A stretch of 64,000 bases of DNA, taken from Candidatus Levyibacteriota bacterium (lineage in GTDB: Bacteria; Patescibacteriota; Microgenomatia; Levybacterales; UBA12049). A model generated the notes under the pieces. That model was not told the origin of the DNA. It saw nothing but the letters and a program-made list of their open reading frames with translations, and did not search any database. Position numbers and translations under genes: made by a program. The stretch covers positions 9,353 through 73,352 of the forward strand of contig JACPGP010000016.1 in NCBI GenBank assembly GCA_016182425.1. Reading direction: 5' to 3'. Position 1 is the first letter of the stretch. Every line of letters begins with the position of its first letter. Positions 7,362-46,513 of this stretch are shown here, one piece after another.

Positions 7362-7595
7362 ATGCAAACACAACGCATTAACATTAGCCTACCTTATGAA
7401 GTAATTAAACAATTAAATGGAGCGGTTCCGCAGGGAAAACGCAGCCAATTTATTGCCAAAGCAGTTTCCGAAAAGCTGACCAAAAAAAGAAATATCGAAA
7501 AAGAACTCATAAAAAGCCTCAAAGCCAATTCCAAATTCTACAAAAAGGTTGCTAAGGAATGGGAAGTTACAGAAGTTGAGGGATGGCCAGAATGA
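7362..7595 (+). CDS. Ribbon-helix-helix (CopG/MazE-type) antitoxin
   Basis: MQTQRINISLPYEVIKQLNGAVPQGKRSQFIAKAVSEKL. It overlaps the mazF start. A TATAAT at 7341-7346 lies upstream, so ATG 7362 is preferred over GTG 7338. Confidence 0.8.
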   Translation: MQTQRINISLPYEVIKQLNGAVPQGKRSQFIAKAVSEKLTKKRNIEKELIKSLKANSKFYKKVAKEWEVTEVEGWPE

Positions 7596-7933
7596 AACGA
7601 GGCGAGATTTGGATAATAAATCTTGAACCAGGTTTTGGCCGAGAAATCCACAAAAAAAGACCCGCGCTTATCCTATCAGAAAACTCCATTCACACAAACA
7701 GCGACCATGTTATTATTATTCCCGCAAGTTCTCTTGTTCCAAAGCTAATAGGAATAGAAATGGTGTCTATTGGTAAAAAAGAGGGATTAGATAAGGCATC
7801 TGTTTTATTGCCTCTCTACATACGTAGTGTCGATCAAGAACGACTAATAAAAAAGGCTGGTAGAATATCTAAAGTAAAACTAAAAGAAATCGAAGAGGCA
7901 GTAAAAATTGTTCTGGATTTAAAACATGAGTAA
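7583..7933 (+). CDS. mazF: MazF/PemK family endoribonuclease toxin
   Basis: KRGEIWIINLEPGFGREIHKKRPALILS is a typical PemK N-terminus. The gene overlaps the antitoxin by 13 nt. Confidence 0.9.
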   Translation: MARMKRGEIWIINLEPGFGREIHKKRPALILSENSIHTNSDHVIIIPASSLVPKLIGIEMVSIGKKEGLDKASVLLPLYIRSVDQERLIKKAGRISKVKLKEIEEAVKIVLDLKHE

Positions 7934-7936
7934 GCA

Positions 7937-8377
7937 ATGAAAATTAGTAATAGAAGAGCATTTTACGATTACCAAATTTTTGAGCGGTTTGAGGCAGGCG
8001 TTAACCTGTTAGGATCCGAGGTAAAAGCAATAAGAGGCGGTCACGCCGATTTAAGCGGCTCGCACGTTCGAATTATCGGCTCCGAAGCCTACCTTGTCAA
8101 TGCCAAAATTTTTCCCTACAAGTACGCCAGGCCAGAAAATTATGACGAAAGGCGTACTCGAAAGCTGCTTTTACATAAAAAAGAAATTATTACCCTCAAG
8201 TCAAAAATAGAGGGGCAAAATTTAACCATTGTTCCCCTTTCTTTGTACACCAGCAGCCACTTTATTAAGCTCGAACTAGCCTTAGGAAAGGGTAAAAAGA
8301 AGTACGAGAAAAAAGAAGCTAAAAAGCAAAAAGATCTGGAGCGAGAAATAGCCTCAGAACTCGCTACAGGGGAGTAA
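7937..8377 (+). CDS. smpB: SsrA-binding protein SmpB
   Basis: NRRAFYDYQIFERFEAGVNLLGSEVKAIR...RKLLLHKKEI, followed by a basic C-terminal tail. Confidence 0.95.
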   Translation: MKISNRRAFYDYQIFERFEAGVNLLGSEVKAIRGGHADLSGSHVRIIGSEAYLVNAKIFPYKYARPENYDERRTRKLLLHKKEIITLKSKIEGQNLTIVPLSLYTSSHFIKLELALGKGKKKYEKKEAKKQKDLEREIASELATGE

Positions 8378-8384
8378 ATTTTTG

Positions 8385-8756
8385 TGGAGATGTCCGAGAA
8401 TGACTCGGAGTCCAAGAACTAGATTAAAAAACTTCTACAAGCATAGTCGATTTTTAAGAGTCACTTTATTCTTTGCCAATCGACAGGTATGAATAAAATC
8501 AAGGTTTAATAAATAAAATAAGGACAAAAACCAATCTTCCTTACCATTTCTCAACTGTATTTTTGCTCATACCATCCCGTTGAGAAAGAGGATATGAACA
8601 GGCTTAGTTAAGGTATGCTCTTTGAGGAGCATACGCATAAGCTAGACCGCTAAAGGGGTTAACCTTAGCATTTATATTTGATTCTGTTTTACGACTAGTT
8701 ATCAAAGTCGGCTTGCAGCTTTTTAACGTGCATTCTTGTCGATGCAATGCATCCCC
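8385..8756 (-). ncRNA. ssrA: tmRNA (SsrA)
   Basis: Read on the minus strand. The 5' GGGGAUG pairs with the 3' CAUCUCC-A and includes a G3:U70 wobble. An AUCGAC element follows the 5' strand. CGUUAAAAAGCUGCAA...CUAGUCG resembles the E. coli pre-tag region. GGAC precedes the T-arm UCCGA/UCGGA. Length is about 372 nt, the gene is convergent with smpB, and a consensus promoter lies upstream. Confidence 0.85.
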
Positions 8757-9427: not shown

Positions 9428-9451
9428 ATAAATAGTGTAGCAAAAAGAGGG

Positions 9452-9537
9452 CGGAGAGGGTGGGATTCGAACCCACGTGAGCTTGCGCCCAATTGGTTTT
9501 CAAGACCAACGCCGTACGACCACTTGGCTACCTCTCC
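9452..9537 (-). tRNA. tRNA-Ser (anticodon UGA)
   Basis: Cloverleaf folded by hand. Acceptor is GGAGAGG/CCTCTCC, anticodon loop CTTGAAA, T-arm GTGGG-TTCGAAT-CCCAC, with a long variable arm. Confidence 0.9.
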
Positions 9538-9580
9538 AAGTGTTCCAAGTATAACAAATTGAGGCTAACACTACAAGAAA

Positions 9581-10006
9581 TTACAGCGAAGATAGCATCA
9601 AAACTTTTAGCTCTTTAACTACTTTAGTTTTCCGATCATTTGTGATAAAAACTTCAGCTTTTTCTTGAATAGCTGTTGCCAATTGAATAGCATCTGGCGT
9701 CCGAAATCCATATATTCTACGAATCTTTGCCGCTCCAACTGCAATTTTTTGATCTATATCAAGAATTGTTAGGTTAGGAATTGTAAGTACCTTTTTTACT
9801 ATATCTTTGGCTGCTTGATCAGAAAGTTTTTTTGAAGAAAGCATCTCAATAAGGGTTGTGATGCTGGTTATTGCTCGTAACTCATTTTCAGCTAAGGCGT
9901 CAAAAATCAATTTCGAAGCTGTTCCAAACTGTGAACTCTCATTAAAATAATAAATAAAAATATTGCTATCTAAAGCTACTTTTTTTAGATTACTTATCCC
10001 ACTCAT
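9581..10006 (-). CDS. vapC: PIN-domain toxin VapC
   Basis: LDSNIFIYYF...LIEML...PDAIQLATA...ITND shows the acidic PIN residues in the expected order. The gene overlaps the upstream antitoxin by 17 nt. Confidence 0.85.
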   Translation of the reverse strand: MSGISNLKKVALDSNIFIYYFNESSQFGTASKLIFDALAENELRAITSITTLIEMLSSKKLSDQAAKDIVKKVLTIPNLTILDIDQKIAVGAAKIRRIYGFRTPDAIQLATAIQEKAEVFITNDRKTKVVKELKVLMLSSL

Positions 10007-10232
10007 CTCTCATTTTTTCAACCTCTGCGATTGGATCTATTCCCTTCCAATATTTTTTAAGAGCGCCGTAATTCTCATCAGACCAGTTTTGTTTGCTTAC
10101 TTTTACTTCAAGCGTTTCCTCATCTATTGGATATACATGAACCTTATTTCCCGGCCTAATGGCCTTTAATTTTTTACGCACCTCTTTAGGAAGAACAATT
10201 TGATATTTTGACCCAATAGTTACTTGCTGCAT
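9990..10232 (-). CDS. vapB: AbrB/SpoVT-type antitoxin (VapB)
   Basis: VTIGSKYQIVLPKEVRKKLKAIRPGNKVHVYPIDEETLEVKV is a swapped-hairpin AbrB-like signature. Confidence 0.8.
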   Translation of the reverse strand: MQQVTIGSKYQIVLPKEVRKKLKAIRPGNKVHVYPIDEETLEVKVSKQNWSDENYGALKKYWKGIDPIAEVEKMRDEWDK

Positions 10233-10301
10233 GGTATGACGATTTTACTATTTTTTGTCATACTTGTCAAGTGGACAAAAAATCTCTATAATACCTTTTA
10301 G

Positions 10302-10385
10302 GGAGGGTGACTCAGACGGTAACGAGAATGGTTTGCTAAACCATGACCCGTAAGGGTCCAGTGGGTTCGACTCCCACACCCTCCG
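10302..10385 (+). tRNA. tRNA-Ser (anticodon GCU)
   Basis: Acceptor is GGAGGGT/ACCCTCC and the anticodon arm is ATGGT-TTGCTAA-ACCAT. The variable arm is GACCCGTAAGGGTCC and the T-arm GTGGG-TTCGACT-CCCAC. Confidence 0.85.
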
Positions 10386-10388
10386 CAG

Positions 10389-12638
10389 CTAGCTCCCAAA
10401 AAATGAGCCGAAGAAACGTTTTATTCTTCCCCACAGAGTAGGTTTTGCAGTTGCCGTTTCGCTACGACTTATTTGTTGCTCGCGCTGGGTTCTTTCAGTT
10501 TCGGTAGAATGATGTACAGCGGCATCACGCCCATACAAATTGTTTTCTGCTTGCTGTTTTTGTATCTGTTCTTCTTTGGGAGTTTCGCTGGTCTTCGGAA
10601 ATATTTGTGGCGCTACCTCCCGGATCCATTCATTCTTTACCATCTGACATGTTTCGGCAATAGTAAGAACCGGCCTATCTCTTCTCCCCCTAACAGCAAT
10701 TGTATCTGCTACAACATACTGATGGTTTTTTCCTAAAAGAGCAGAACGGTTGCCGATTTTAATACCACGAATAGGCCCATACTCCATTGCATACTCACCT
10801 CTACCCGTATGTTTTAGTAACCGATCAACAAATCCTGCAATAACACATTTTTGTATTTCTACCAGAAGCTCATTATTAGCAACATCAAAAACAACATCTC
10901 TTTCTTCTATACCAAAGCTTTGGGCACCTTCTTCATCTATAAAATCATTTTTGGTCTGCTCTACTTCTTTTAAGACGCTGTAGTTAAGTCCATTACTTTT
11001 ACACCAGTCTACTGCTCTGTCTCTATTTTGCACATACCCATTCCAGACGCGAAGCAATGTTATATAATCTGAATCTCTTGATAAAAACTGTGCATATTTC
11101 TGGTCAAAGCGGGATGTACGGGGATTAAAATCAAAAACCGATCTTTGACTACTCAAAAAACCCACAAGCACAGAAACGGCATTCGTTGTTTTTCTTTTTT
11201 TTGCCTCAACAAGCATACGGGCGTAATGCGGATCAACAGGTAATTCTGCCATTTCTTTCCCCATATCTGTTATTGCGCCTCCAGCATCAAGCGCACCTAG
11301 TTTTTTCAGTGTATTTACTGCAGTATCTAAACGATCCTTTCCAGGATGATCGGGGTAATCAAATTCATACACATTGTCAATACCAATATTTTTAATGCGA
11401 AGAACAAGTGAGGTAAGATCAACATGAAAAACTTCAGCTTCTGGAAAATCAGCCCTTGCCTCAGCTTGCGCCTTAGTGAACAAATACCAGCCATCTCCCG
11501 GCGCAACTCTGCCGGCACGCCCGGCACGCTGGCGCCAATCTGCCTTTGTGTGTTCTGTAAGCCGCAGTGATGTTAACCCTGTTCTGTCATCATATCTACT
11601 AACTTTCTCCCATCCCGAATCAATAACATGCTTTAGATTCTGAAACGTTGCTGATTCTTGGCCAACATTAGTCGATATAAAAACCACTCGGTCTTCATCG
11701 GTAATTCTCTCCATTTCCTGTTTCTGCTTGTTATCTCTTGTTCCTCCTGTTAGGGTAATAACTTTTATCTTTTCTTTATCTGGTACGTCTTCCTTCATAC
11801 GCAACTCTTCCTGAAAACTTCTTGCTGTCGCAGCAATATCAGACCTTCCAGGCATAAAAATAAGAATATTTCCGTCTTTTGTCGTATCAGCAAGAATATC
11901 TGCCGCAACTCTTGCTGCTTCTTTTGGTGCTTCTTCATAGGGAATTTCTTTTTCGGCAAAGTGATCGGTAATTGAGTGCATCCTTCCTTCAACATTATGA
12001 ACCACTGCCTTTGGAAAATATTGTCTTAACTTCTTTTCATCTACTGTACCTGATGCAAGAACAAACTTAATTGGCTTCATGCGTTTTTGTCTTCGTAATT
12101 CCTGCACTTTCTTAAAAAGCGCAAGCGTAAGTTGGCCATCAGTGCTTTCTTTATGCGCTTCATCAAACAGTATTGCTATATTTTCTTTGCTATATTCCTC
12201 AAGAAGGGTGCCATTTTTTATTCCTTCCTGCAACATGTTGAGGAGCGACCCGGTAACCATAAAATCAATCTTTGTGGTGGGAGAAACAGTATTTGTACCC
12301 TTGTATCTTTTCCCAACGTTTTCTTTACCAATCTGAAGACCAACAAAGTCTGTCAGGCTATCAACGGCAAATCTGCGCGGTTGAGTTACCAATACTTTTG
12401 CAGACATACGACCATTGTTAGATACAACATCATAGATAAATTGAGGAAGCACCGTACTTTTTCCCGAACCTGTTTGCCCAATAACAATAATTTCATCGTG
12501 TTCATAAAGTGAATTTTTAATATCACTTTCTACCCGATGCATTGGGGTATCCTCTACCAAAGGCGTCTGTCTTGTTGTAGTAAGTTCTCGTCTTGGTTCA
12601 CTTCCAACGCGTGTTCCGGCTTCTATTGCAGCTGGCAT
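10389..12638 (-). CDS. DEAH-box ATP-dependent helicase (HrpA/HrpB-like)
   Basis: Carries GQTGSGKST (motif I), FDEAH (motif II) and QRAGRAGR (motif VI), plus a HA2-like C-terminal region. Confidence 0.85.
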   Translation of the reverse strand: MPAAIEAGTRVGSEPRRELTTTRQTPLVEDTPMHRVESDIKNSLYEHDEIIVIGQTGSGKSTVLPQFIYDVVSNNGRMSAKVLVTQPRRFAVDSLTDFVGLQIGKENVGKRYKGTNTVSPTTKIDFMVTGSLLNMLQEGIKNGTLLEEYSKENIAILFDEAHKESTDGQLTLALFKKVQELRRQKRMKPIKFVLASGTVDEKKLRQYFPKAVVHNVEGRMHSITDHFAEKEIPYEEAPKEAARVAADILADTTKDGNILIFMPGRSDIAATARSFQEELRMKEDVPDKEKIKVITLTGGTRDNKQKQEMERITDEDRVVFISTNVGQESATFQNLKHVIDSGWEKVSRYDDRTGLTSLRLTEHTKADWRQRAGRAGRVAPGDGWYLFTKAQAEARADFPEAEVFHVDLTSLVLRIKNIGIDNVYEFDYPDHPGKDRLDTAVNTLKKLGALDAGGAITDMGKEMAELPVDPHYARMLVEAKKRKTTNAVSVLVGFLSSQRSVFDFNPRTSRFDQKYAQFLSRDSDYITLLRVWNGYVQNRDRAVDWCKSNGLNYSVLKEVEQTKNDFIDEEGAQSFGIEERDVVFDVANNELLVEIQKCVIAGFVDRLLKHTGRGEYAMEYGPIRGIKIGNRSALLGKNHQYVVADTIAVRGRRDRPVLTIAETCQMVKNEWIREVAPQIFPKTSETPKEEQIQKQQAENNLYGRDAAVHHSTETERTQREQQISRSETATAKPTLWGRIKRFFGSFFGS

Positions 12639-12658
12639 GGTATATATTATACTCTAGC

Positions 12659-12688
12659 TTGACTAGAGAAGAGTAATTCAGTTAGGAT
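12659..12688 (+). promoter_or_regulatory. Promoter placing the -10 box 6 nt from the ATG (leaderless type)
   Basis: TTGACT (12659-12664), an 18-nt spacer, TAGGAT (12683-12688), then 6 nt to ATG 12695. The divergent helicase has TATAAT (12651-12646, minus strand) 7 nt before its ATG at 12638. Confidence 0.5.
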
Positions 12689-12694
12689 AAAAGT

Positions 12695-13204
12695 ATGGAT
12701 CAGTCTCCCTTGCACGAGGTAAAAACGCTTCTTTCCTGGAAAGCGCCAGGCAGGCCGTTTCGAAAGAGAGGAAAAGAATACTATCTAAGCGTTTTTTTAA
12801 TTACAATTCTTATTGAAGTTATTCTCTTTCTTTTCTCTCAATATATGCTGATGATTGTTATCCTTTCTTTTGTGGTAATGGCATTTGCTCTAGTTACCGT
12901 TCCTCCACACAATTTTCAATACCGCATCAGCACCGAGGGCATTACCATTGAAGATCACTTTTATCTTTGGCAAGAACTCTACGATTTCTACTTTAAAAAG
13001 CGCGACGGCGTAGAAACATTGTATGTTCGAACACGAGCTTTTCCCGGAGAAATCATCATAAGCTTAGGGGATGTTAATCGGGAACATCTAAAATCTATCC
13101 TTCTACAATTCCTTCCTTATCGGGAAATTATTAAACCCACCTTTATGGAAAAATCTGCCGACTGGCTCTCGCGCAATTTTCCCCTTGAAAAGCGAACTTC
13201 ATAG
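12695..13204 (+). CDS. Hypothetical two-TM membrane protein
   Basis: 169-aa ORF with hydrophobic helices LSVFLITILIEVILFLF and MIVILSFVVMAFALV. No motif recognised. Confidence 0.5.
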   Translation: MDQSPLHEVKTLLSWKAPGRPFRKRGKEYYLSVFLITILIEVILFLFSQYMLMIVILSFVVMAFALVTVPPHNFQYRISTEGITIEDHFYLWQELYDFYFKKRDGVETLYVRTRAFPGEIIISLGDVNREHLKSILLQFLPYREIIKPTFMEKSADWLSRNFPLEKRTS

Positions 13205-13247
13205 AGATTTGGTATATCATACATATTCTTGTATAATAATTGCGATT

Positions 13248-13322
13248 GCACCCATAGCTCAACGGATAGAGTAGCGGCTTGCGGAGCCGTTGATCCCAGT
13301 TCGATTCTGGGTGGGTGCGCCA
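13248..13322 (+). tRNA. tRNA-Arg (anticodon GCG), CCA encoded
   Basis: Hand fold: GCACCCA-TA-GCTC-AACGGATA-GAGT-A-GCGGC-TTGCGGA-GCCGT-TGAT-CCCAG-TTCGATT-CTGGG-TGGGTGC-G-CCA. Confidence 0.85.
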
Positions 13323-13326
13323 AAAA

Positions 13327-13413
13327 GGAGGAGTGCAAGAGAGGCTTATTTGGCCGGTCTCGAAAACCGAGCGAGTCGCAAGATTCACAGAGGTTCGAAT
13401 CCTCTCTCCTCCG
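13327..13413 (+). tRNA. tRNA-Ser (anticodon CGA)
   Basis: Acceptor is GGAGGAG/CTCCTCC and the anticodon loop is CTCGAAA. The variable arm is GAGTC-GCAA-GATTC and the T-arm AGAGG-TTCGAAT-CCTCT. Confidence 0.85.
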
Positions 13414-13419
13414 CAATTA

Positions 13420-13491
13420 GTCCTCGTAGTTCAATGGATAAAACAAAAGCTTCCGGAGCTTTAGTTGCGGGTTCGACTCCCGCCGAGGACG
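13420..13491 (+). tRNA. tRNA-Arg (anticodon CCG)
   Basis: Acceptor is GTCCTCG/CGAGGAC, the anticodon arm AAAGC-TTCCGGA-GCTTT and the T-arm GCGGG-TTCGACT-CCCGC. Confidence 0.85.
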
Positions 13492-13494
13492 CTT

Positions 13495-13926
13495 ATGAAA
13501 TTTGAGTTTTCAGCTGGTGGCATAGTCCTTCGACAAGCTCAGGATAAAAAAATTGAGATACTTGTCGCGCAGCACTCGCAGCACCATGGCTGGGTTTTCC
13601 CAAAAGGCTTAATTGGTGACAGTGGCAAAAAAGAAACAAAAGAAGAAACAGCGGTAAGGGAAGTGCAGGAAGAAACAGGGGTATGGGCAAAAATTATAAA
13701 GCCATTAACGCCAATTTCATACTGGTACCAGTTTGAAGGTCAAAAAATTAAAAAAACCGTGTATTATTTTATTATGGAGTATGTCTCTGGCGATATAAAA
13801 GACCACGACTGGGAAATGGAAAATGTCGAATGGCTGCCAATTGAAGAAGTTGAAAAAAGGTTGACTTACTCGTCTGATAAACAAGTATGGCAAGAGGCAA
13901 AAAAGTTACTAGGAGAGGTCGCATAG
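13495..13926 (+). CDS. NUDIX hydrolase
   Basis: NUDIX box GWVFPKGLIGDSGKKETKEETAVREVQEETG. The start is taken at MKFEFSAGG (13495) because the track start at 13465 lies inside tRNA-Arg. Confidence 0.9.
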   Translation: MKFEFSAGGIVLRQAQDKKIEILVAQHSQHHGWVFPKGLIGDSGKKETKEETAVREVQEETGVWAKIIKPLTPISYWYQFEGQKIKKTVYYFIMEYVSGDIKDHDWEMENVEWLPIEEVEKRLTYSSDKQVWQEAKKLLGEVA

Positions 13927-13999
13927 TTGGTCTAGTGCGCAGCTTTGGAAAAGCTGTATATCCGCAAGGATATCGGGAGTTCGAATCTCCCCCTCTCCG
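13912..13999 (+). tRNA. tRNA-Ser (anticodon GGA)
   Basis: Acceptor is GGAGAGG/CCTCTCC, the anticodon arm CAGCT-TTGGAAA-AGCTG and the T-arm GGGAG-TTCGAAT-CTCCC. The first 15 nt overlap the NUDIX 3' end. Confidence 0.85.
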
Positions 14000-14076
14000 C
14001 AGCGTAAGAAATTTTTTAAAATTTCAACAAATCTAATAAATGGGTGTTCCGATGGAAGGTTTGGTAAAATAATTCT

Positions 14077-15363
14077 ATGAGAGTAAATCTTTCTCGTTGG
14101 ATGGTTGCGATTCTAATAGGACTGATCATAACCGTAGCTGCATTTGTTTTTTTCAAAAATTTTGGGGGAAAGACTGAAGTAAACTGGAAAATAATGAAGG
14201 GGCGGGAAAAACCTCTGCGTGCCGTACACATGGGGGGCAATTGGGGAGGTACTCAAAGGATAGTGGAAAAGCCGGATGAAAAGTACTTTGAATACTTACG
14301 TGATTTAGCGGTCAACTGGGTGGGAATTTCTGTTGCCCTGCATGTTGATGACAGCACGGATTCAAACGTAAAGCGATCGTATTCCGGAGTAGATATCCCG
14401 ACTTTTACGGATGATAATTTGATCCGCATGATTAAACTACTCCGAAAACACGGTTTTCGAGTCTATCTAACATTAGCTTTTGAAGATCAGGAATCTCAAA
14501 AAGCCACTCGCCCAGTCCATCGCTGGCAACTGGGAGATCCTAACGCAGTTGTCAACGGCGAGATTAAAAATTTCCAAGATTGGCCTTGGGCGTCCAACCA
14601 TCCCAACCATACACGGTTTGTGGATGAATTCTGGCGAGCTTACACTGACCAGGCGGTACATTTTGCCCGGATCGCGCAAGAGAGTGGTGTAGAACTTTAC
14701 TCGATTGGCACAGAGACAGAGCAATTATTCAGAAGCCGTTCTGATGCTGACCACCCCAATCATTTTAAAGATCAAATAATGGAAATGGTCAAAGAAACGC
14801 GGCAAGTTTATAGCGGTAAAATCACCTATGACATGCATTACAGTGCCTTGCTCTACGACTGGCCCGGTTCTAAATTTCTTTTTGAAGACATTGACTTTGA
14901 TGTTGTTGGGATAAGCGCTTATTTTGAGCTTGTTGATCATCCTCCCGCCGGAGTCTTAACCGTTAATCAACTAGAAGAGTCTTGGGAGAAAGTATTCCAG
15001 AAATACTTAGTTCCCCTAAAGAATCAGTATCCCCGTAAATCGATCGTGTTCACCGAATTTGGTTACGTGACAGCGGTTGAAGCGCCATATAATCCAGCTT
15101 CCGAGGAACGAAGAAACACGGTTGAAAAGATAGTCGATAGAGACAATAACGGACTTGACGACGCCCAGGAACAACAAGCTCATATTTATGAGGCCTTCTA
15201 TAACACTGTTGAAAAATACCCTGATACGGTAGAAGGAGCATTCACTTGGCAAGAATCTTTCCCTGGAGCATGGGCTCCTGTGGATATTTGGGGTGTATGG
15301 GGCAAACTTGCTAAAGACACTGTAAAAAAATATTACACAAAATGGCGGGGTATTTCTGGATAA
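14077..15363 (+). CDS. Membrane-anchored putative glycoside hydrolase ((beta/alpha)8, GH5/GH113-like)
   Basis: An N-terminal TM helix is present. Candidate catalytic Glu contexts are LYSIGTETEQLF and SIVFTEFGYV. A TAAAAT box (14065-14070) lies 6 nt before the ATG. Confidence 0.55.
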   Translation: MRVNLSRWMVAILIGLIITVAAFVFFKNFGGKTEVNWKIMKGREKPLRAVHMGGNWGGTQRIVEKPDEKYFEYLRDLAVNWVGISVALHVDDSTDSNVKRSYSGVDIPTFTDDNLIRMIKLLRKHGFRVYLTLAFEDQESQKATRPVHRWQLGDPNAVVNGEIKNFQDWPWASNHPNHTRFVDEFWRAYTDQAVHFARIAQESGVELYSIGTETEQLFRSRSDADHPNHFKDQIMEMVKETRQVYSGKITYDMHYSALLYDWPGSKFLFEDIDFDVVGISAYFELVDHPPAGVLTVNQLEESWEKVFQKYLVPLKNQYPRKSIVFTEFGYVTAVEAPYNPASEERRNTVEKIVDRDNNGLDDAQEQQAHIYEAFYNTVEKYPDTVEGAFTWQESFPGAWAPVDIWGVWGKLAKDTVKKYYTKWRGISG

Positions 15364-29386: not shown

Positions 29387-31726
29387 ATGAACACTGCCCG
29401 AAGCATTTCAGCATCAACGCAGAAGTTTACCGAAATACAAGACATACGAGAAAACATTGTTTTACAAACAAGGGGAAACTCATGTTTGATAATCGAAGTG
29501 ACAGCCACCAATTTTTCCCTTCTTTCGCAAGAAGAGCAAGAGGCAAAAATCTTTTCATACGCATCGCTCCTAAACTCTCTCTCCTTCCCTATCCAAATCT
29601 TAATCCGCAATAAGCGCGTCGACATCTCTTCTTACACTAAAAAGTTAGATGAAAATCTGGCAAAACTGGCTCAAGAACAGCCCTCTCACCAGAAAAAAAT
29701 TTCTTACATTCAAAACTACCGATCTTTCGTGCAAGAACTAATTAAAGTAAATACGGTTTTGGACAAAACATTTTATATTATAATCTCTTTCTCTTCCTTG
29801 GAAAGCGGCATAGGCGGCGTGGTGATAAAAAAAGACGATTTTTTCCTCCAGGCCAAAGCAGGACTTCGTACCAAAGCGGAGTCTATTTTAAGCCAGCTGG
29901 GCCGGCTGGGACTTCGCAGTAAAATCCTGGATAAAGAACAGCTTATGCAACTTTTCTACAACATATACAACGATGGGTATGCTGGGGCATTGGCTTTTGA
30001 AACGCCGAATTCTTCCGTGGTTGATCTTATAGCGCCGCCTTCTGTTGAGATTGACTTTCGCTCCGTTCGTGTTGGCACAAAAACCGCTCGCACATTTTTT
30101 ATTGTCGGCTATCCACGTTTTGTTTCCGCGAATTGGCTAGCGCCCTTAGTCGATTTCGACCACGAACTCGATATTTCCTTTTTTATTTATCCCGCGTCAT
30201 CTCCAGACATTCTCTCGGATCTTCGGCGCAAAATCGCCGAGATGGAAGCAACCATCTCATCGCAAGCACAAGCTGGACAAGTTATTGACCCAACGGTAAC
30301 AGCAACCCTTGAGGATGCGCTGGGACTGCAGGAAGAACTGGCTAAGGGAGTTGAACGATTTTTTCTCTTCAGTCTTTATATAACGATATCTGCCGAAAAT
30401 CAAGCCGATCTTGAAAGCTCGGTAAAACGCCTCACAGCTACCATGGCCAGTCTTTTGCTTATAGCCAAACCAGCCACACTGCAAATGGAAGAGGGATATA
30501 AGGCCACTCTTCCATTGGGACAAGACAAGCTTTTTATGACCCGCAATATGGATACGACTTCTCTTGCTTCGATGTTTCCTTTTACCTCGGCCATGCTCAC
30601 GCAGGATAAAGGTACTCTCTACGGCATTAATCAGCAGAATAGTTCTCTTGTTATCTTCGATCGCTTTTCTCTGGAGAATGCCAACGAGGTTGTTTTTGGC
30701 AAGTCGGGCTCTGGCAAATCCTACTGCATTAAGCTGGAGATTCTGCGTCAGTTTATGCTTGGCACCGAGATAATTGTAATTGACCCTGAAGGAGAGTACG
30801 AAACCATTGCTCAAGCCTTAGGCGGCGAATATCTTAATTTTACGCCCTCCTCCCCGATTAAAATTAATCCTTTTGATCTTTCCGGGCTTTATGAAGAGGG
30901 CGAAAACGAGCTGGGACTAAAAATACTTTCTCTCCATGCGCTGTTAAAAATTGTTTTAGGAGAACTGGACGCTTCACACGACGCAATTTTAGATCGCGCG
31001 CTGGTGCAAACCTATCAACAAAAAGGTATTACCCATGATCCTAGCACCCAGAAAAATGAGCCGCCTCTTATGGAAGATCTCTACAAAGTACTTCTGGGCA
31101 TGGAGGACGCGGCAGCTTCGGAACTAGCTCTTCGCCTGGAAAAGTTTATCAAGGGAAGTTTAAGCGGTATTTTTAATCAGCAGTCAAACATCAACCTTGA
31201 CAATCCACTAACCGTCTTCTCCGTTAAACAACTCGAAGATCAGCTGCGGCCAATTGCCATGCACATTATTTTAGATTTTGTCTGGATCAGGATCCGAAAA
31301 ACTCTCAAAAGGCGGCTTTTGGTGTTGGATGAAGCATGGTATATGATGAAGTACGAAGACAGCGCATCCTTTGTCTATGGGATTGCCAAACGCGCCCGTA
31401 AATACTATTTAGGCTTAACAACCGCTACCCAGGACGTTGAGGATTTCCTCTCCACCGATTATGGAAAAGCTGTTTTATCTAATTCCTCACTGCAAATTTT
31501 ACTTAAGCAGGGAACATCAGAAATCGACATTGTCAGTAAAATCTTTTATCTTTCTTCGGGAGAAAAACAATTGCTTCTGGCAGCAAATATTGGTGAAGGG
31601 CTTTTTTTCGCCGGACAAAATCATGTGGCCATGAAGGTGGTAGCAGCGCCATTTGAACACCAACTCATTACCTCAAACCCGCAGGAAATTCTACAAAAAC
31701 AGCAAAATATACCACCAGCAGGATAA
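29387..31726 (+). CDS. virB4: VirB4/TraC/PrgJ-class T4SS ATPase
   Basis: Walker A is VVFGKSGSGKSY and Walker B is RRLLVLDEAWYMM. Size (779 aa) and the position after the prgI-like gene also fit. Confidence 0.9.
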   Translation: MNTARSISASTQKFTEIQDIRENIVLQTRGNSCLIIEVTATNFSLLSQEEQEAKIFSYASLLNSLSFPIQILIRNKRVDISSYTKKLDENLAKLAQEQPSHQKKISYIQNYRSFVQELIKVNTVLDKTFYIIISFSSLESGIGGVVIKKDDFFLQAKAGLRTKAESILSQLGRLGLRSKILDKEQLMQLFYNIYNDGYAGALAFETPNSSVVDLIAPPSVEIDFRSVRVGTKTARTFFIVGYPRFVSANWLAPLVDFDHELDISFFIYPASSPDILSDLRRKIAEMEATISSQAQAGQVIDPTVTATLEDALGLQEELAKGVERFFLFSLYITISAENQADLESSVKRLTATMASLLLIAKPATLQMEEGYKATLPLGQDKLFMTRNMDTTSLASMFPFTSAMLTQDKGTLYGINQQNSSLVIFDRFSLENANEVVFGKSGSGKSYCIKLEILRQFMLGTEIIVIDPEGEYETIAQALGGEYLNFTPSSPIKINPFDLSGLYEEGENELGLKILSLHALLKIVLGELDASHDAILDRALVQTYQQKGITHDPSTQKNEPPLMEDLYKVLLGMEDAAASELALRLEKFIKGSLSGIFNQQSNINLDNPLTVFSVKQLEDQLRPIAMHIILDFVWIRIRKTLKRRLLVLDEAWYMMKYEDSASFVYGIAKRARKYYLGLTTATQDVEDFLSTDYGKAVLSNSSLQILLKQGTSEIDIVSKIFYLSSGEKQLLLAANIGEGLFFAGQNHVAMKVVAAPFEHQLITSNPQEILQKQQNIPPAG

Positions 31727-33409: not shown

Positions 33410-33880
33410 ATGTTTAATATTATGTTTAAAAAAATAAGCATTATTACTTTTCTCTCTACCGTTAGTATTTTATTTATAATCGTGCTCTTTAATTACTTTA
33501 CAAAAAAAACAATTAATCAACCGCCACTTTTGCAGAATCCAACCCCTACAACTTTTATTCCTATAAACACAACTCCCTCTATTGAGGATCAATTAAAAAT
33601 TCAAACACAGAGTGACAAGAAGTTTTCTGATTGGCAAAAAGACATTTATAAAAATTATCCGTGGTATAATAGTCTTCCTCTTCAAACAGATAATTATTTT
33701 GTTTATTTTGATTTAGATGAAAAAAAATTTATTGCATACCTATATCCTAAAACATCCTCCAAAGCTTCTCTTGAGGAACAAGTTATCTCTTTCAAAAATG
33801 AAATAATTACACAATTGGGCGTGCTAGGTGCTGATAGCTCTAAATATATTTTTCAATGGATTATTCAGTCTGAACCCTAA
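33410..33880 (+). CDS. Small N-terminally anchored protein (VirB8-position candidate)
   Basis: A TM helix ISIITFLSTVSILFIIVLF is followed by a ~120-aa ectodomain. It overlaps the dnaN 3' end convergently by 20 nt. No motif recognised. Confidence 0.45.
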   Translation: MFNIMFKKISIITFLSTVSILFIIVLFNYFTKKTINQPPLLQNPTPTTFIPINTTPSIEDQLKIQTQSDKKFSDWQKDIYKNYPWYNSLPLQTDNYFVYFDLDEKKFIAYLYPKTSSKASLEEQVISFKNEIITQLGVLGADSSKYIFQWIIQSEP

Positions 33881-34979
33881 TTGGCATGATGAGGTGGAGA
33901 AAGGAGGAATCTCCTTTAATCTTAAATACCCCGGGGCTCGTTGCTGTCGTCATTTCAAATACCAAATCTTGCTCCTCTATATTGGCAAACAGATCAAGAA
34001 GGTAACGCGCGTTAAACGCAATATCATTATCCTCCCCTGTTATTTTTGCTTCAACCTCCACTGTATTTTCTCCTGTTTGGGGAGCGTTTGCAGATACCAC
34101 AATACTATCTTTTTTCAACGAAAGCCTCACAATATTTGCCGATTCCCTGGCAAAAATAGCGCACATTTTAACCGCTTTCTCCATTTCGGTCTTATCAAAA
34201 ATTGCTTTAGTGAGTATATCTTGTGGGATGATTTTCTCATACTCTGGAAATTGCGCCTCAAGAAGCCTCCCTACAATTATCGTATCTCCCTGCTCGAATA
34301 ACACCTGGTTTGTTTTCTCTATCACAAACATTTTTACCAATGTATCTTCGTTATTTTTTACCATGGCTGCTTCTCGTAGCGCTCGGGCGCTGACTAACAG
34401 CGGCTTTTCCAGACTAAAAGGAATTTGATTATATATCAAAGAAAGTCTATATCCATCAGTAGCAACAAGATAAAATTTTTTACCTAAACTTTCTTCTTCT
34501 CTTTTTATATAAATCCCAGACAGGGCAGGACGTGAAGTATCGATGCTGGCGGAAAAAAGTACATGTAAAAGTGTTTTTTGAAACAGGTCTTTTTTTATCT
34601 CTCCCACTCTTTCTCCTTTTTCTTCATATAATTTTGGAAATTCGTCTGATGATATTGTTTGAAAAACGCTTTTGGTATGTTTTGTGGTAATAATAATATT
34701 TTTATCATTTGTCTCTATTAATATTTTTTCCTGGGGTAAAGTGTTTATAAGCTCTGAGAATGATTTTGCGGGGATTGTTGTTTCTCCTTCCTCTTCTATG
34801 TTGGCTGTTATTTTAATGTCAATACCTATTTCTAAATCAGTAGCGCTTATTTTTAATTTTCCATTCCTTGCTTGGAAAAAAATATTTTGTAGTACTGGAA
34901 GCTGGGAATGTGATGATATTGCTTTATTAACAAAAGGAAGCGTTTTTTGTAAATATTCAGATAAGACATATAGTTTCAT
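33861..34979 (-). CDS. dnaN: DNA polymerase III beta sliding clamp
   Basis: LQKTLPFVNKAISSHSQLPVLQNIFFQARNGKLKISATDLEIGI. Size is 372 aa and the gene lies downstream of dnaA. Confidence 0.95.
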   Translation of the reverse strand: MKLYVLSEYLQKTLPFVNKAISSHSQLPVLQNIFFQARNGKLKISATDLEIGIDIKITANIEEEGETTIPAKSFSELINTLPQEKILIETNDKNIIITTKHTKSVFQTISSDEFPKLYEEKGERVGEIKKDLFQKTLLHVLFSASIDTSRPALSGIYIKREEESLGKKFYLVATDGYRLSLIYNQIPFSLEKPLLVSARALREAAMVKNNEDTLVKMFVIEKTNQVLFEQGDTIIVGRLLEAQFPEYEKIIPQDILTKAIFDKTEMEKAVKMCAIFARESANIVRLSLKKDSIVVSANAPQTGENTVEVEAKITGEDNDIAFNARYLLDLFANIEEQDLVFEMTTATSPGVFKIKGDSSFLHLIMPIRVQTE

Positions 34980-35130: not shown

Positions 35131-36501
35131 TCATAATGTAATATTGGTTATCCCCATAATTTCCAGAGAAAGATTATTGTTTTTTGTATTTGGTAAAGAT
35201 AATAATTTATCTATTTTTTCAACACCATGCATAATGGTAGTATGATCTCTGCCCCCCAAGACATTTCCTATCTCAACCAAAGGTAATCCAAGCTCCTTTT
35301 TAAGAAGAAACATTGCTATATGTCTTGCTTTTACCAGACGTGAATCACGTTTGGGGCCTTTTATTTGGGTCGATTTTATGTTGTAATAGGAGCAGACCTT
35401 ATTTATTATGTCATCTGGATGACGGTGTTCTTCTGTGCTTCCCCTCTGGTGTTTTAAGATTTTCGCGGCGAATTGTTCGGTGATTTCCTCACTTTTTGTT
35501 TTTGCCTCCGTGATAACTCTTAAAAGCGCCCCTTCCAGACTTCTGGTGTCCAACGAGTTTTGGGCGATGAGTCTTGCTACATCAATCGGCAATTCTATTT
35601 CGTATTTCACCGCTTTGATTAAAAGAATGGCTGTTCTAAGCTCAAAATCTGGTGGCTCAATATCAACAGTAAGCCCAGAGGAAAAACGAGAGGAGAGACG
35701 CCTCTCCAGTTTTTTTATCTCATTGGGAGGGCGATCAGAAGAAAGCACCACCTGCGAGGCATTATCGATTAGGATGTTAAATGTATGAAACAATTCTTCC
35801 TGAATTTTATCTTTTCCCGCAATAAACTGCACATCATCAATTATTAAAAGATCAACTGTTCGAAATCTCCTTTTCATCCTGGCAGTATCATTTGAACGTA
35901 TTGCTCCCACAACATCATTGGTAAATTCCTCGCTGGTAATGTAGATGATTTTTTTATCAGGGTATTTTTCGTACACCTCATTTGCTATTGCCTGCATGAG
36001 ATGGGTTTTGCCAACACCGGTCGGTCCATAAATAAATAGCGGATTATAGGACCGACCTATATTTTTAGCCACTGTTTGCGCTGAAACAAAAGCCAGTTGA
36101 TTACTGGAAGAGACAGCCATTGTTTGGAATCGGAATTCCGGGCGAACACGAGACAAAGATTTGGAAAATGGAGTTTTAAGGAGAGAGTCTTTGGAAATTA
36201 AACTATCCGAAAACAACGGCTCCTCCTTTTTTTCAATGTTTTTTTCAGGCAACGTTTTGGCTATAAACACAAGCAGATAATCTTTACCGGTATGTTTTTT
36301 TAATATCTTTTTAATAACGTCCGAAAATCGCTTCTTAAGCAAATCAATACCAATTGATGAGTGAGCTGCGATTGTTGCCACATTATTTTCCAGCGACACC
36401 AGCGCTGTTTTTTTAAAGAAGGTAAGAAAGTGCGCTTTTGATACTTCTGTTTCGACTTCTCCAAGCGCGGTTTTCCAAAGCTCATCAACATCTGTCCTCA
36501 T
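35131..36501 (-). CDS. dnaA: Chromosomal replication initiator DnaA
   Basis: Carries GPTGVGKTHLMQAI and box VII/VIII-like regions. The C-terminal HTH reads ...RDHTTIMHGVEKI. Start MRTDVDELW (36501) is preferred because the track start at 36555 would put a perfect DnaA box inside the CDS. Confidence 0.93.
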   Translation of the reverse strand: MRTDVDELWKTALGEVETEVSKAHFLTFFKKTALVSLENNVATIAAHSSIGIDLLKKRFSDVIKKILKKHTGKDYLLVFIAKTLPEKNIEKKEEPLFSDSLISKDSLLKTPFSKSLSRVRPEFRFQTMAVSSSNQLAFVSAQTVAKNIGRSYNPLFIYGPTGVGKTHLMQAIANEVYEKYPDKKIIYITSEEFTNDVVGAIRSNDTARMKRRFRTVDLLIIDDVQFIAGKDKIQEELFHTFNILIDNASQVVLSSDRPPNEIKKLERRLSSRFSSGLTVDIEPPDFELRTAILLIKAVKYEIELPIDVARLIAQNSLDTRSLEGALLRVITEAKTKSEEITEQFAAKILKHQRGSTEEHRHPDDIINKVCSYYNIKSTQIKGPKRDSRLVKARHIAMFLLKKELGLPLVEIGNVLGGRDHTTIMHGVEKIDKLLSLPNTKNNNLSLEIMGITNITL

Positions 36502-36528
36502 ACATTTTATGTATGAAGACTTTACTAA

Positions 36529-36567
36529 TGTGGATAACTTTTTGTCAAGAAGCATAAAATGGATAAA
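36529..36567. promoter_or_regulatory. DnaA boxes upstream of dnaA (oriC/autoregulation candidate)
   Basis: TGTGGATAA (36529-36537) is a perfect complement of TTATCCACA. ATGGATAAA (36559-36567) is a 7/9 match. Confidence 0.55.
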
Positions 36568-43811: not shown

Positions 43812-44453
43812 TTACTTTTTTAAAATTTGCGCAATAAGTGAAACAAATACCACGCGAAGTTGCGCTCGTTGCTCCTTGGTTTTTACTGCCTGATAAATAC
43901 CAGGGGCGATAGATATAAGAATAATAGCAGCAATAATTGGAAGAAGATACCGATCAACATCTGGGATGGTTTTCCCTAAGTAAAATCCTGCCAAGGGTAA
44001 TCCCACTGCCCAGAGAAACGCACCAACAATATTGTAGGAGAGAAATTTTACATAAGGCATATCGCCCATACCGGCAACGATTGGCGCAAAAGTACGAATA
44101 AGTGGCATGAATCGTGCCAGAATAATTGTTTTACCTCCGTGTTTGTCATAAAAGTTTTTTGCCCGGATAAGATGATCTTTATGGAAGAAAAATGAATCCG
44201 AACGTCGAAAAAGTCGTTTTCCCACCCGGTGTCCAAACGCATACCCCGTACTGTCTCCTAGAACAGCAGCAAGAAAAAGAAGAGCACAGACAGCTCTTAT
44301 ATCTAAATATCCTTGTGAGGCTATAAAGCCTGTGGTAAAAAGAAGACTGTCGCCTGGAAGAAAAAATCCAACCAAAAGCCCTGTCTCTGCAAAGACAATG
44401 GAAAAAATACCAACGTAACCAACGGTTTTAATGAACACCTCTAAATCAGGCAC
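43812..44453 (-). CDS. DedA family membrane protein
   Basis: VFAETGLLVGFFLPGDSLLFTTGFIASQG...ARFMPLIRTFAPIVAG. Confidence 0.9.
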   Translation of the reverse strand: MPDLEVFIKTVGYVGIFSIVFAETGLLVGFFLPGDSLLFTTGFIASQGYLDIRAVCALLFLAAVLGDSTGYAFGHRVGKRLFRRSDSFFFHKDHLIRAKNFYDKHGGKTIILARFMPLIRTFAPIVAGMGDMPYVKFLSYNIVGAFLWAVGLPLAGFYLGKTIPDVDRYLLPIIAAIILISIAPGIYQAVKTKEQRAQLRVVFVSLIAQILKK

Positions 44454-45561
44454 TTTTCCTCCTTAGGGCTTCGATGCCGGGAAGGGTGCCTTTTTCGATC
44501 AGCTCCAGCATGGCGCCGCCGCCTGTTGAAACATGGGTGATTTTGTCAAGGTCTTTGTTTCCAGAAACAGATGCAAGCGTATCTCCACCACCAACAAGAG
44601 AAAACGCACGCTTATTATTTACAACTGCCCTAAAAATTGCATTGGTGCCTTTGGCAAATCGTTTATCTTCAACAAGCCCCACAGGCCCATTCCAGACAAT
44701 TGTTTTTGCTTTACTGATTACATCAGTAAATGCTTTTGCTGTTCTCGGGCCAATATCAAGAATTTTGTTTTCAAGACCAGCTGTGTCTATGGGTAAGAGA
44801 AGAGAAACATTTTTTTTCTTGGCAAGATTTAATATTTTTTGGGTTATTTCTGGTTCTTGGTTTTGAAGAAATGCATTGGCAATGCCTCCTCCTAAAAGAA
44901 GATAATCAACAACATCAAGAAGCTTGGAAAGCAGAATAATTTTGGTGGAGATTTTTGCTCCTCCAATTATTGCCACTACCGGTTTTTGGGGTTTTTGCAT
45001 AAGTTTTTGAATTGCTCGTATTTCTTTTTCCAAAAGTAATCCAGCGTAAGAGGGGAGAAGTCTGGTAATACCAACAACAGATGCAGCATCTCTGTGTGAA
45101 ACCCCAAATGCATCATTAACATATACAGTTCCTAACTGGCTAAGTTTTTGGGCAAAAATATCGTCGTTTATTTTCTCGCCTGGATAGAACCGAATATTTT
45201 CCAGAAGAACAATATCGTTTGCGGTTTGTTTTTGAAGAGTTAGCTTTTCTTTTCCCGAAAGAAAATCCTCAATAAGTATGATATGTTTTTTAGACAAGAG
45301 TTTTTGCAGATACAAAACCACAGGTTTAAGGGAGAACTTATGCTCGCGTCCATTTGGACGGCCAAGATGAGAAACGAGGATGACTTTGTTTTTTTGTTTG
45401 AGTAGTAATTCTATAGTTGGGAGAGATTTAATAATGCGAATACCATCAGCGACTGTTTGTTTTTCGGTTAGGGGCACATTAAAGTCAACACGCAAAAGCA
45501 CACGTTTTCCTTCAATTTTATTTTGACTAAGCAGTCTTATACCCCTGAGAAGATTATTCAT
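44446..45561 (-). CDS. pgk: Phosphoglycerate kinase
   Basis: KRVLLRVDFNVPL...SHLGRP...GGGDT...STGGGAMLE. Confidence 0.95.
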   Translation of the reverse strand: MNNLLRGIRLLSQNKIEGKRVLLRVDFNVPLTEKQTVADGIRIIKSLPTIELLLKQKNKVILVSHLGRPNGREHKFSLKPVVLYLQKLLSKKHIILIEDFLSGKEKLTLQKQTANDIVLLENIRFYPGEKINDDIFAQKLSQLGTVYVNDAFGVSHRDAASVVGITRLLPSYAGLLLEKEIRAIQKLMQKPQKPVVAIIGGAKISTKIILLSKLLDVVDYLLLGGGIANAFLQNQEPEITQKILNLAKKKNVSLLLPIDTAGLENKILDIGPRTAKAFTDVISKAKTIVWNGPVGLVEDKRFAKGTNAIFRAVVNNKRAFSLVGGGDTLASVSGNKDLDKITHVSTGGGAMLELIEKGTLPGIEALRRKSA

Positions 45562-46510: not shown

Positions 46511-46513
46511 AAT

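Follow-up and report, generated by a model that had tools for sequence, protein, structure and literature searches.

Operons that mix tRNA genes with protein-coding genes are already known in bacteria and so, separately, are leaderless mRNAs. In the tufB operon of Escherichia coli (thrU-tyrU-glyT-thrT-tufB), tRNAs and a protein gene share one promoter and the mRNA is freed by tRNA processing, with a spacer of roughly 100 nucleotides (nt) that carries a Shine-Dalgarno (SD) sequence. Here we examine a stretch of 64,000 nt from Candidatus Levyibacteriota bacterium (contig JACPGP010000016.1, positions 9,353 to 73,352; the whole stretch is referred to as the window), in which the gene for a NUDIX hydrolase is flanked directly by tRNA genes on both sides, with 3 nt separating it from the upstream tRNA and a 15-nt overlap with the downstream one. 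This arrangement would allow tRNA processing to set both ends of the mRNA.

Two further systems, and the substrates of one tRNA-processing enzyme, provide the points of comparison. In E. coli a single RNase P cut parts the secG mRNA from leuU, with a spacer of 14 nt, after which the mRNA has a half-life of less than 30 s (PMC2241853). In the tRNA punctuation of animal mitochondria (Ojala, Montoya and Attardi 1981, as cited through PMC4633059), mRNAs are flanked by tRNAs and their ends are made by RNase P and RNase Z; on the same second-hand account these mRNAs have 5' untranslated regions (UTRs) of 0–3 nt and are translated as leaderless messages. RNase Z itself cuts tRNA precursors without an encoded CCA on the 3' side of the discriminator base, a pathway of Bacillus subtilis (Pellegrini et al. 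2003, as described in PMC1874595).

The initial annotation had proposed a NUDIX gene packed exactly between tRNAs, and its coordinates, gene order and spacers all hold by direct reading, by ARAGORN and by the Rfam tRNA covariance model (gathering score 29 bits). The features of the locus are as follows.

13209-13237, + strand: promoter-like site with a -35 element TTGGTA (13209-13214), a 17-nt spacer and a -10 element TATAAT (13232-13237); consensus scan, 10/12 matches.
13248-13319 (to 13322 with CCA), + strand: tRNA-Arg(GCG), with CCA encoded at 13320-13322; ARAGORN, Rfam 63.4 bits.
13327-13413 (to 13414 with C74), + strand: tRNA-Ser(CGA), class II, with discriminator G13413 and C74 at 13414; ARAGORN, Rfam 43.4 bits.
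13420-13491 (to 13492 with C74), + strand: tRNA-Arg(CCG), with discriminator G13491 and C74 at 13492, CCA not encoded, next bases CTT; ARAGORN, Rfam 63.2 bits, identical in the relative L081.
13485-13489, + strand: SD-like GAGGA in the 3' strand of the tRNA-Arg(CCG) acceptor stem, 5 nt before the NUDIX ATG; sequence and predicted fold.
13495-13926, + strand: coding sequence (CDS) of a NUDIX hydrolase of 143 amino acids (aa), resembling hydrolases of diadenosine tetraphosphate (Ap4A); Pfam NUDIX, 3i7u similarity, Nudix box.
13912-13926, + strand: 15-nt overlap GGA GAG GTC GCA TAG (G-E-V-A-stop), which is nt 1-15 of tRNA-Ser(GGA); direct reading, ARAGORN, Rfam.
13912-13999 (to 14000 with C74), + strand: tRNA-Ser(GGA), class II, with discriminator G13999 and C74 at 14000; ARAGORN, Rfam 55.3 bits.
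14008-14025, + strand: AT-rich hairpin GAAAUUU-UUUA-AAAUUUC after tRNA-Ser(GGA); predicted fold.
14065-14070, + strand: -10 box TAAAAT, 6 nt before ATG 14077 of the next gene (GH113-like); sequence.

The order is thus a promoter-like site, tRNA-Arg(GCG), tRNA-Ser(CGA), tRNA-Arg(CCG), NUDIX and tRNA-Ser(GGA). The TATAAT box ends 10 nt before tRNA-Arg(GCG), the spacers between the first and second and between the second and third tRNAs are 4 and 6 nt, and the 3 nt (CTT) between discriminator G13491 and the NUDIX ATG shrink to 2 nt if counted from the encoded C74. The default filters of Rfam missed tRNA-Ser(CGA), which was recovered at 43.4 bits with permissive filters. Only the first tRNA encodes its CCA; tRNA-Ser(CGA), tRNA-Arg(CCG) and tRNA-Ser(GGA) do not, so that endonucleolytic or exonucleolytic removal of the trailer followed by CCA addition is needed in all three.

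At the downstream junction the overlap between the NUDIX CDS, stop codon included, and the 5' part of tRNA-Ser(GGA) is exactly 15 nt, as had been claimed. Both ARAGORN and Rfam place the 5' end of this tRNA at 13912, rather than downstream of 13926. The stop codon TAG (13924-13926) therefore occupies positions 13-15 of the tRNA, 12 nt past its start, and an RNase P cut at 13912 would, as the initial annotation pointed out, leave the mRNA without an in-frame stop. Only one reading frame of tRNA-Ser(GGA) has an early stop, the TAG at positions 13-15, which accounts for the recurrence of the same 15-nt overlap in other genomes described below.

Set against the known systems, the locus shares with tufB several tRNA genes and a downstream protein gene under one promoter, here a predicted one; it differs in that NUDIX follows its upstream tRNA after 3 nt, apparently makes no use of an SD and is closed off by a further tRNA. 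With secG-leuU it shares a small protein gene followed by a tRNA, where one RNase P cut would make both the 5' end of the tRNA and the 3' end of the mRNA, although here this is read from the genes alone. The 14-nt E. coli spacer is also near the median of 16 nt in Levybacteria. However, the secG stop lies 14 nt upstream of the cut and its mRNA terminates normally, whereas here the stop is inside the tRNA, and secG has its own 5' UTR and promoter, whereas here a tRNA abuts the AUG. The features of a mixed tRNA-mRNA operon that can be read from sequence are present, namely genes on the same strand, one upstream promoter-like site and no promoter or terminator found between them, with the difference that the released mRNA would neither keep its stop codon nor have a 5' UTR.

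The likeness to mitochondrial punctuation that had been suggested stands in part: the flanking tRNAs and the short 5' end are there, but completion of the stop by A-tailing would fail (CUA plus A gives AAA) and there is no genome-wide polycistrony, since 22/56 open reading frames (ORFs) in the window have their own -10 boxes. Unlike in mitochondria, the stop is inside the tRNA rather than truncated, individual promoters are many, and the machinery is a bacterial ribosome with a transfer-messenger RNA (tmRNA) system. The three tRNAs without encoded CCA resemble the substrates of the B. subtilis RNase Z pathway, but unlike CCA-less genes of that species (for example one with U74) C74 is encoded in 285/285 tRNA genes here. 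The closer precedent is the bacterial secG-leuU pair and not mitochondria, and on our best reading the present locus is an extreme, leaderless form of it.

The product of the NUDIX gene is 100% identical to a protein entry from Candidatus Levybacteria (Patescibacteria, Microgenomates). It matches Pfam PF00293 with an E-value of 2e-20 (73.6 bits, cutoff 21.1), and the Nudix box (GX5EX7REUXEEXGU) is intact (GDSGKKETKEETAVREVQEETGV, residues 41-63, nt 13615-13683). Residues 1-138 align with residues 1-128 of the Ap4A hydrolase of Aquifex aeolicus (Protein Data Bank entry 3i7u; E 4e-25), and with this enzyme and with Ndx1 of Thermus thermophilus the protein shares full-length similarity, an N-terminal MK.EFSAGG and the Nudix box; unlike in either, its four C-terminal residues are encoded by a tRNA. 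As the 3i7u alignment stops at residue 138, the G-E-V-A tail lies outside the conserved fold. The start codon at 13495 is secure by comparison with homologues, because 85 of the 120 best begin with MKF and residue 1 aligns with residue 1 of 3i7u. Against the NCBIfam equivalogs MutT1, RppH, MutT and YtkD the protein falls far below every cutoff. Judged by its sequence this is a bona fide Nudix protein closest to Ap4A hydrolases. A functional link between such an enzyme and tRNA genes, either through Ap4A made by synthetases or through decapping of Np4A-capped leaderless RNAs, is speculation.

Between the window and its closest distinct relative, L081 (86% aa identity), the synonymous divergence (dS) of the NUDIX gene is about 1.9 and the ratio of nonsynonymous to synonymous divergence (dN/dS) is 0.04. 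These values indicate strong purifying selection on the gene and a packing that has outlasted saturating synonymous divergence: in L081 tRNA-Arg(CCG) is identical, the ATG comes 2 nt after it, the overlap is again 15 nt, and the acceptor stem of tRNA-Ser(GGA) carries compensatory changes relative to the window. Four independent assemblies from four sequencing runs moreover share one identical sequence from tRNA-Arg(CCG) to the start of tRNA-Ser(GGA), with both junctions, which shows that the packing is not an assembly artefact; in two of them the contig extends over the whole of tRNA-Ser(GGA), with 13420-14000 matched in full. The exact sequence is present at the sampling sites of SRR4343428/SRR4343430 and SRR12113425/SRR12113431. 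In the annotated protein of L081 (P0002) the gene caller has stretched the NUDIX ORF upstream into tRNA-Arg(CCG), giving an N-terminal extension MDKTKASGALVAGSTPAEDA-MKFEF, and a like extension (...TPEDA before MKFEF) in P0090 probably also runs into an upstream tRNA. Gene callers that mask tRNAs would truncate or miss such genes, and others extend them into the upstream tRNA.

To place the locus among its relatives, 80 loci with a NUDIX homologue from a genome collection (about 80 species-level genomes) were re-annotated with ARAGORN and tblastn. Across the Levybacteria/Microgenomates loci, Arg(GCG)-Ser(CGA)-Arg(CCG)-NUDIX-Ser(GGA) is a widely shared gene order. A tRNA-Ser(GGA) lies at most 300 nt downstream of NUDIX in 76/80 assessable loci and on the same strand in 67 of those, where the spacer has a median of 16 nt, is 5 nt or less in 18 loci and becomes an overlap in 6. 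Upstream, a same-strand tRNA is found within 150 nt of NUDIX in 43/78 loci, within 20 nt in 25 and within 3 nt in 7, and in 13 loci neither flanking spacer exceeds 20 nt.

Conservation of the overlap had been suggested as a check, and the 15-nt stop-in-tRNA overlap is indeed present in L081, L006, L011, L030 and L089; in L019 and L048 the overlap is 5 nt, and in L031, L064 and L075 the NUDIX stop lies 3 nt before the tRNA without overlap. In the closest relatives within the genome collection the gene ends in an ordinary stop ahead of the tRNA, by 48 nt in L002 and by 5 nt in L003. A G-x-[VI]-A tail ends 8 of the 120 best homologues, and the overlaps sit in at least three separate places on a neighbour-joining tree. 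At the other junction, gaps of 1-3 nt after the discriminator (0-2 nt after C74) occur in at least five lineages, four of which have the pyrimidine-rich tail of a tRNA-Ser. L089 is tighter than the window, C74 of its tRNA-Ser(CGA) being followed directly by the ATG and its stop lying in the 15-nt overlap with tRNA-Ser(GGA). Judging from this distribution, the 1-3 nt gaps and the stop-in-tRNA overlaps have each arisen several times, and the window stands at the most tightly packed extreme of a graded compaction around a conserved operon rather than showing a designed punctuation mark.

Several other arrangements were seen at these junctions. Unrelated genes start 0-3 nt after C74 of a tRNA in L018 (tRNA-Ser(TGA), 138-aa ORF), L033 (tRNA-Ser(GGA), 94-aa ORF) and L078 (tRNA-Met, 261-aa ORF), so the junction of a tRNA with an ATG is not specific to NUDIX. 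Short tandem repeats rich in stop codons run across the NUDIX stop and spacer in L003, L010, L015, L016, L029, L043, L050 and L060, examples being TTATTAG-TTATTAG, CTAAGAG-CTAAGAG and ATTTGAAATT repeats; these might be slippage-prone spacers that shift the position of the stop. The spacers of 83-100 nt in L024, L074, L078 and L079 repeat the opening ~13 nt of tRNA-Ser(GGA) (GGAGGGGTCGCAT) once or twice upstream of the real tRNA; these copies could have been left by duplication or integration, or could act as decoys for RNase P. Finally, in nine loci (L005, L008, L014, L036, L045, L047, L049, L069 and L080) the tRNA-Ser(GGA) is inverted yet remains 3-115 nt from the NUDIX stop, which points to repeated local inversion of the tRNA gene alone.

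We next consider where transcription of the unit would begin and end. In about 15 relatives a -35/-10 pair (TTTGCT..TAAAAT) ends 9-13 nt before tRNA-Arg(GCG), the same position as the promoter-like site in the window. No terminator-like site was detected in a consensus scan of 12500-14500, and the window has no -10-like hexamer 4-14 nt upstream of either 13495 or 13912. A search for internal promoters in the unit gave none at a plausible distance; the lone candidate, a weak 9/12 match (TTAAAA-16-TATTAT, 13748-13775) inside the NUDIX CDS, was rejected as it is built from conserved Tyr-Tyr-Phe-Ile codons. The claim that there is no room for a separate promoter, SD or terminator is thus upheld for promoter and terminator, neither of which was found, but not for the SD, since the SD-like GAGGA exists at 13485-13489. 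Among relatives with spacers of at least 20 nt, tRNA-Ser(GGA) has a clear promoter of its own in only 7/29 by a strict hexamer rule; for NUDIX the count is 14 of 52 relatives. As tRNA-Ser(GGA) rarely has its own promoter and none is usable in the window, the economical reading is that the three upstream tRNAs, NUDIX and tRNA-Ser(GGA) would be co-transcribed. Downstream, the predicted hairpin at 14008-14025 may serve as a weak end of the unit, although it falls outside the terminator consensus, and the TAAAAT box at 14065-14070 is placed to start the next leaderless-type transcription unit and so to bound the operon.

The leaderless context that had been claimed for the window is borne out by its other genes. 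SD-like cores at -18 to -5 precede 6/56 ORFs, against 4.8 expected by chance, so there is no enrichment. A -10 box whose end falls 4-13 nt upstream of the start codon was counted in 22/56 ORFs, most often at 7 nt, and -10-like hexamers number 18 and 14 in the two 10-nt bins closest to ATGs, against an expectation of 3.3. The upstream neighbour of the locus, with TAGGAT 6 nt before ATG 12695, also fits leaderless-type spacing. Because SD sequences are not enriched and -10 boxes cluster 6-13 nt before ATGs, leaderless or near-leaderless starts appear to be the norm in the window, and the host is predicted to initiate generally in this way. Relatives without an abutting tRNA agree: in several, among them L007, L032, L036 and L037, a TATAAT precedes the NUDIX ATG by 6-8 nt, and none has a conserved SD there.

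The GAGGA itself was considered as an SD and is retained only as part of one alternative discussed below: it is paired within the 7-base-pair acceptor stem of the predicted precursor fold, is not kept in equally tight lineages and stands in a window without SD enrichment. In the relatives whose tRNA-Ser(CGA) abuts the ATG (L038, L060, L069 and L089) the pyrimidine-rich tail has no counterpart to GAGGA, making an SD impossible there. In the predicted folds both NUDIX-flanking tRNAs form cloverleaves in the precursor, and the NUDIX AUG is unpaired in precursor and processed RNA alike. The geometry would allow the mRNA 5' end to lie 0-3 nt before the AUG after 3' cleavage of the tRNA.

A regularity at the tRNA 3' end bears on where this cut would fall. 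Anchored on the T-loop, position 74 is C in 285/285 tRNA genes (L001-L084 and the window, in a survey that sampled 6-7 isoacceptor families), while the rest of the CCA is less constant, with C75 in only 35% and A76 in 52%; all six window tRNAs between 9449 and 14000 encode C74. Bacterial RNase P RNA pairs with C74 and C75 (PMC1874595), and the universal C74 could reflect either this pairing, in the L15 loop, or a rule of 3' processing. If the 3' cut came after C74, the mRNA would begin exactly at the AUG in L054, L060, L069 and L089.

Taken together, we give a probability of roughly 0.6 to a model in which the locus produces one tRNA-mRNA-tRNA transcript whose mRNA has its ends set by tRNA processing and is of the leaderless form. 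The single promoter at 13209-13237 would drive tRNA-Arg(GCG), tRNA-Ser(CGA), tRNA-Arg(CCG), nudix and tRNA-Ser(GGA) as one RNA. RNase P would cut at every tRNA 5' end, which alone would be enough to part the three upstream tRNAs with their 4-6 nt spacers. The preferred route to the mRNA 5' end is endonucleolytic 3' maturation of the RNase Z type acting on the CCA-less tRNA-Arg(CCG), which would free an mRNA starting 0-3 nt before the AUG; in a leaderless host such a tRNA 3' cut would be equal to a transcription start.

At the 3' end, the NUDIX gene would have lost its own stop and now reads four codons into tRNA-Ser(GGA), to the TAG at positions 13-15. Full-length protein could then come only from RNA that RNase P has yet to cut, most plausibly while it is being transcribed or shortly afterwards, and the terminating ribosome would keep the acceptor stem of tRNA-Ser(GGA) unfolded. 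The tRNA-Ser(GGA) of the locus is probably the only one of its kind, in which case the RNase P cut at 13911/13912 is required. This cut would yield a stop-less mRNA without a protective 3' structure, open to 3'-to-5' decay, and ribosomes stalled on it would be rescued by tmRNA-SmpB.

The components for such rescue lie about 5 kb upstream of the NUDIX locus, with the SmpB gene at 7937-8377 (E 3e-47) and the tmRNA gene at 8382-8756 on the minus strand (106 bits with Rfam; missed by ARAGORN). Directly before SmpB is a MazF/PemK toxin gene (7583-7933), and the convergent tmRNA gene is only 4 nt beyond SmpB. If RNase P cuts at 13911/13912, tagging of the NUDIX product by tmRNA would follow. Completion of the stop by A-tailing, in the mitochondrial manner, was rejected: the last whole codon ahead of the cut is CUA (...UUA CUA), after which A-addition gives AAA. 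It also yields no stop in L006 (CAC), L011 (ATT) or L030 (AAA), and likewise fails in L019 and L048.

Several observations weigh against this model. The promoter and the processing sites are consensus-level predictions, and the 7/29 count of tRNA-Ser(GGA) promoters depends on the strict hexamer rule. A Pfam scan of the 34 larger ORFs of the window found no RNase Z, RNase P protein or CCA-adding enzyme, and the processing enzymes are thus assumed. Genomes of the Candidate Phyla Radiation (CPR) keep RNase J (PMC12641178), for which an mRNA with a 5' monophosphate is a good substrate, so that the processed mRNA could be very short-lived. Internal cistrons in the window also lack an SD, so the organism must be capable of SD-less internal starts, and endonucleolytic release is not strictly required. 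Finally, the nine loci with an inverted tRNA indicate that adjacency can last without co-transcription.

The most serious alternative, which we regard as possible but unlikely, accepts the same transcript and differs in what is translated. Ribosomes would start internally at AUG 13495 on the unprocessed chimera, either without an SD or assisted briefly by GAGGA while the acceptor stem is still open; no free leaderless mRNA would be made, and after the RNase P cut at tRNA-Ser(GGA) 3'-to-5' exonucleases would eat the mRNA and in doing so make the 3' end of tRNA-Arg(CCG). The position of GAGGA 5 nt before the ATG, the unpaired AUG in the predicted precursor and the SD-less internal ORFs of the window, which mean that such initiation must exist, all fit this view, as do the 4-6 nt tRNA-tRNA junctions, which need only RNase P and trimming, and the exonucleolytic removal of secG mRNA after RNase P cleavage (PMC2241853). 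However, GAGGA is paired in its 7-base-pair stem in the predicted fold and has no equivalent in L038, L060, L069 or L089. The repeated convergence of gaps on 0-2 nt after C74 is a better fit to a 5'-terminal AUG than to an internal site, and where relatives have promoters of their own, these are sited so that the transcript starts at the AUG.

Two other explanations do away with the shared transcript or with the significance of the packing. It is improbable that the genes are separate units served by cryptic promoters in the tRNA cluster or the NUDIX CDS, with the packing mere genome compaction. The 9/12 site at 13748-13775, the promoters present in 7/29 (tRNA-Ser(GGA), at the longer spacers) and 14/52 (NUDIX) relatives and the nine inverted tRNAs are in its favour, but a transcript begun from the 13748-13775 site, which coincides with conserved Tyr-Tyr-Phe-Ile codons, would have a leader of about 130 nt, neither 13495 nor 13912 is preceded at 4-14 nt by a -10-like hexamer, and tRNA-Arg(CCG), identical in L081, shows no sign of accommodating a promoter. 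A promoter for tRNA-Ser(GGA) would in any case solve nothing, as RNase P would still cut the read-through mRNA. Least probable by far, and largely refuted, is the idea that the NUDIX gene is decaying and that its overlap with the tRNA arose recently by a slightly harmful accident or is an artefact of annotation. This could draw on the G-E-V-A tail being outside the conserved fold and on the ordinary stops of L002 and L003, 48 and 5 nt before the tRNA. It is contradicted by the dN/dS of 0.04 over a dS of about 1.9 with the packing retained in L081, by the intact Nudix box, by the same overlap in at least three other lineages and the tail in 8/120 homologues, and by the four identical independent assemblies.

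Other features of the window were noted alongside. All four tRNA-Ser isoacceptors (TGA, GCT, CGA and GGA) together with tRNA-Arg(GCG) and tRNA-Arg(CCG) are found within 4.6 kb (9449-14000). The Arg tRNA for CGY codons, which in bacteria usually has the ACG (inosine) form, has the anticodon GCG in the window and likewise in 55 relatives. Upstream, tRNA-Ser(GCT) ends at 10386 (window 10302-10391) and converges on a 749-aa DEAH/HA2 helicase gene whose stop codon is 10389-10391, with 2 nt and no terminator between the two genes. As dnaN (33861-34979) and dnaA (35131-36555), both on the minus strand, are present, the region of the replication origin probably falls within the window, which further contains a gene for a TraG-like P-loop ATPase (29387-31726) and a glycolysis cluster (PGK, FBPase and class I aldolase, 44446-47506).

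In the literature searched we found no description of a bacterial case in which tRNA processing supplies both mRNA ends, or of a bacterial stop codon inside a downstream tRNA kept over saturated synonymous divergence, and nothing relevant on leaderless translation or tRNA punctuation in CPR/Patescibacteria or on leaderless mRNAs made by RNase Z. Extending the model beyond this locus, we tentatively suggest, while holding it doubtful as a whole, that in Levybacteria, and perhaps widely in Microgenomates, tRNA maturation is a regular source of translatable mRNAs, amounting to a form of tRNA punctuation that evolved independently in bacteria. As translation there appears largely leaderless, cutting a CCA-less tRNA at its 3' end, possibly after the C74 that is always encoded, would make an mRNA with a 5' AUG, whose other end would be set at the RNase P site of the following tRNA. 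In loci with the stop inside the tRNA, the same 15 nt would be contested by RNase P and the terminating ribosome; each transcript would give one tRNA-Ser(GGA), protein would be made only before cleavage and tmRNA-SmpB would clear the rest, thereby coupling tRNA output, protein output and trans-translation.

If confirmed, these findings would mean that the logic of tRNA punctuation can arise outside organelles once a lineage drops SD-dependent initiation, and that the 3' cut of a tRNA can replace a transcription start. They would also mean that cells can live with, or even exploit, a gene that unavoidably yields non-stop mRNA. The locus, which is kept throughout the phylum, offers a concrete site at which RNA processing in uncultivated CPR bacteria could be tested using existing groundwater metatranscriptomes.

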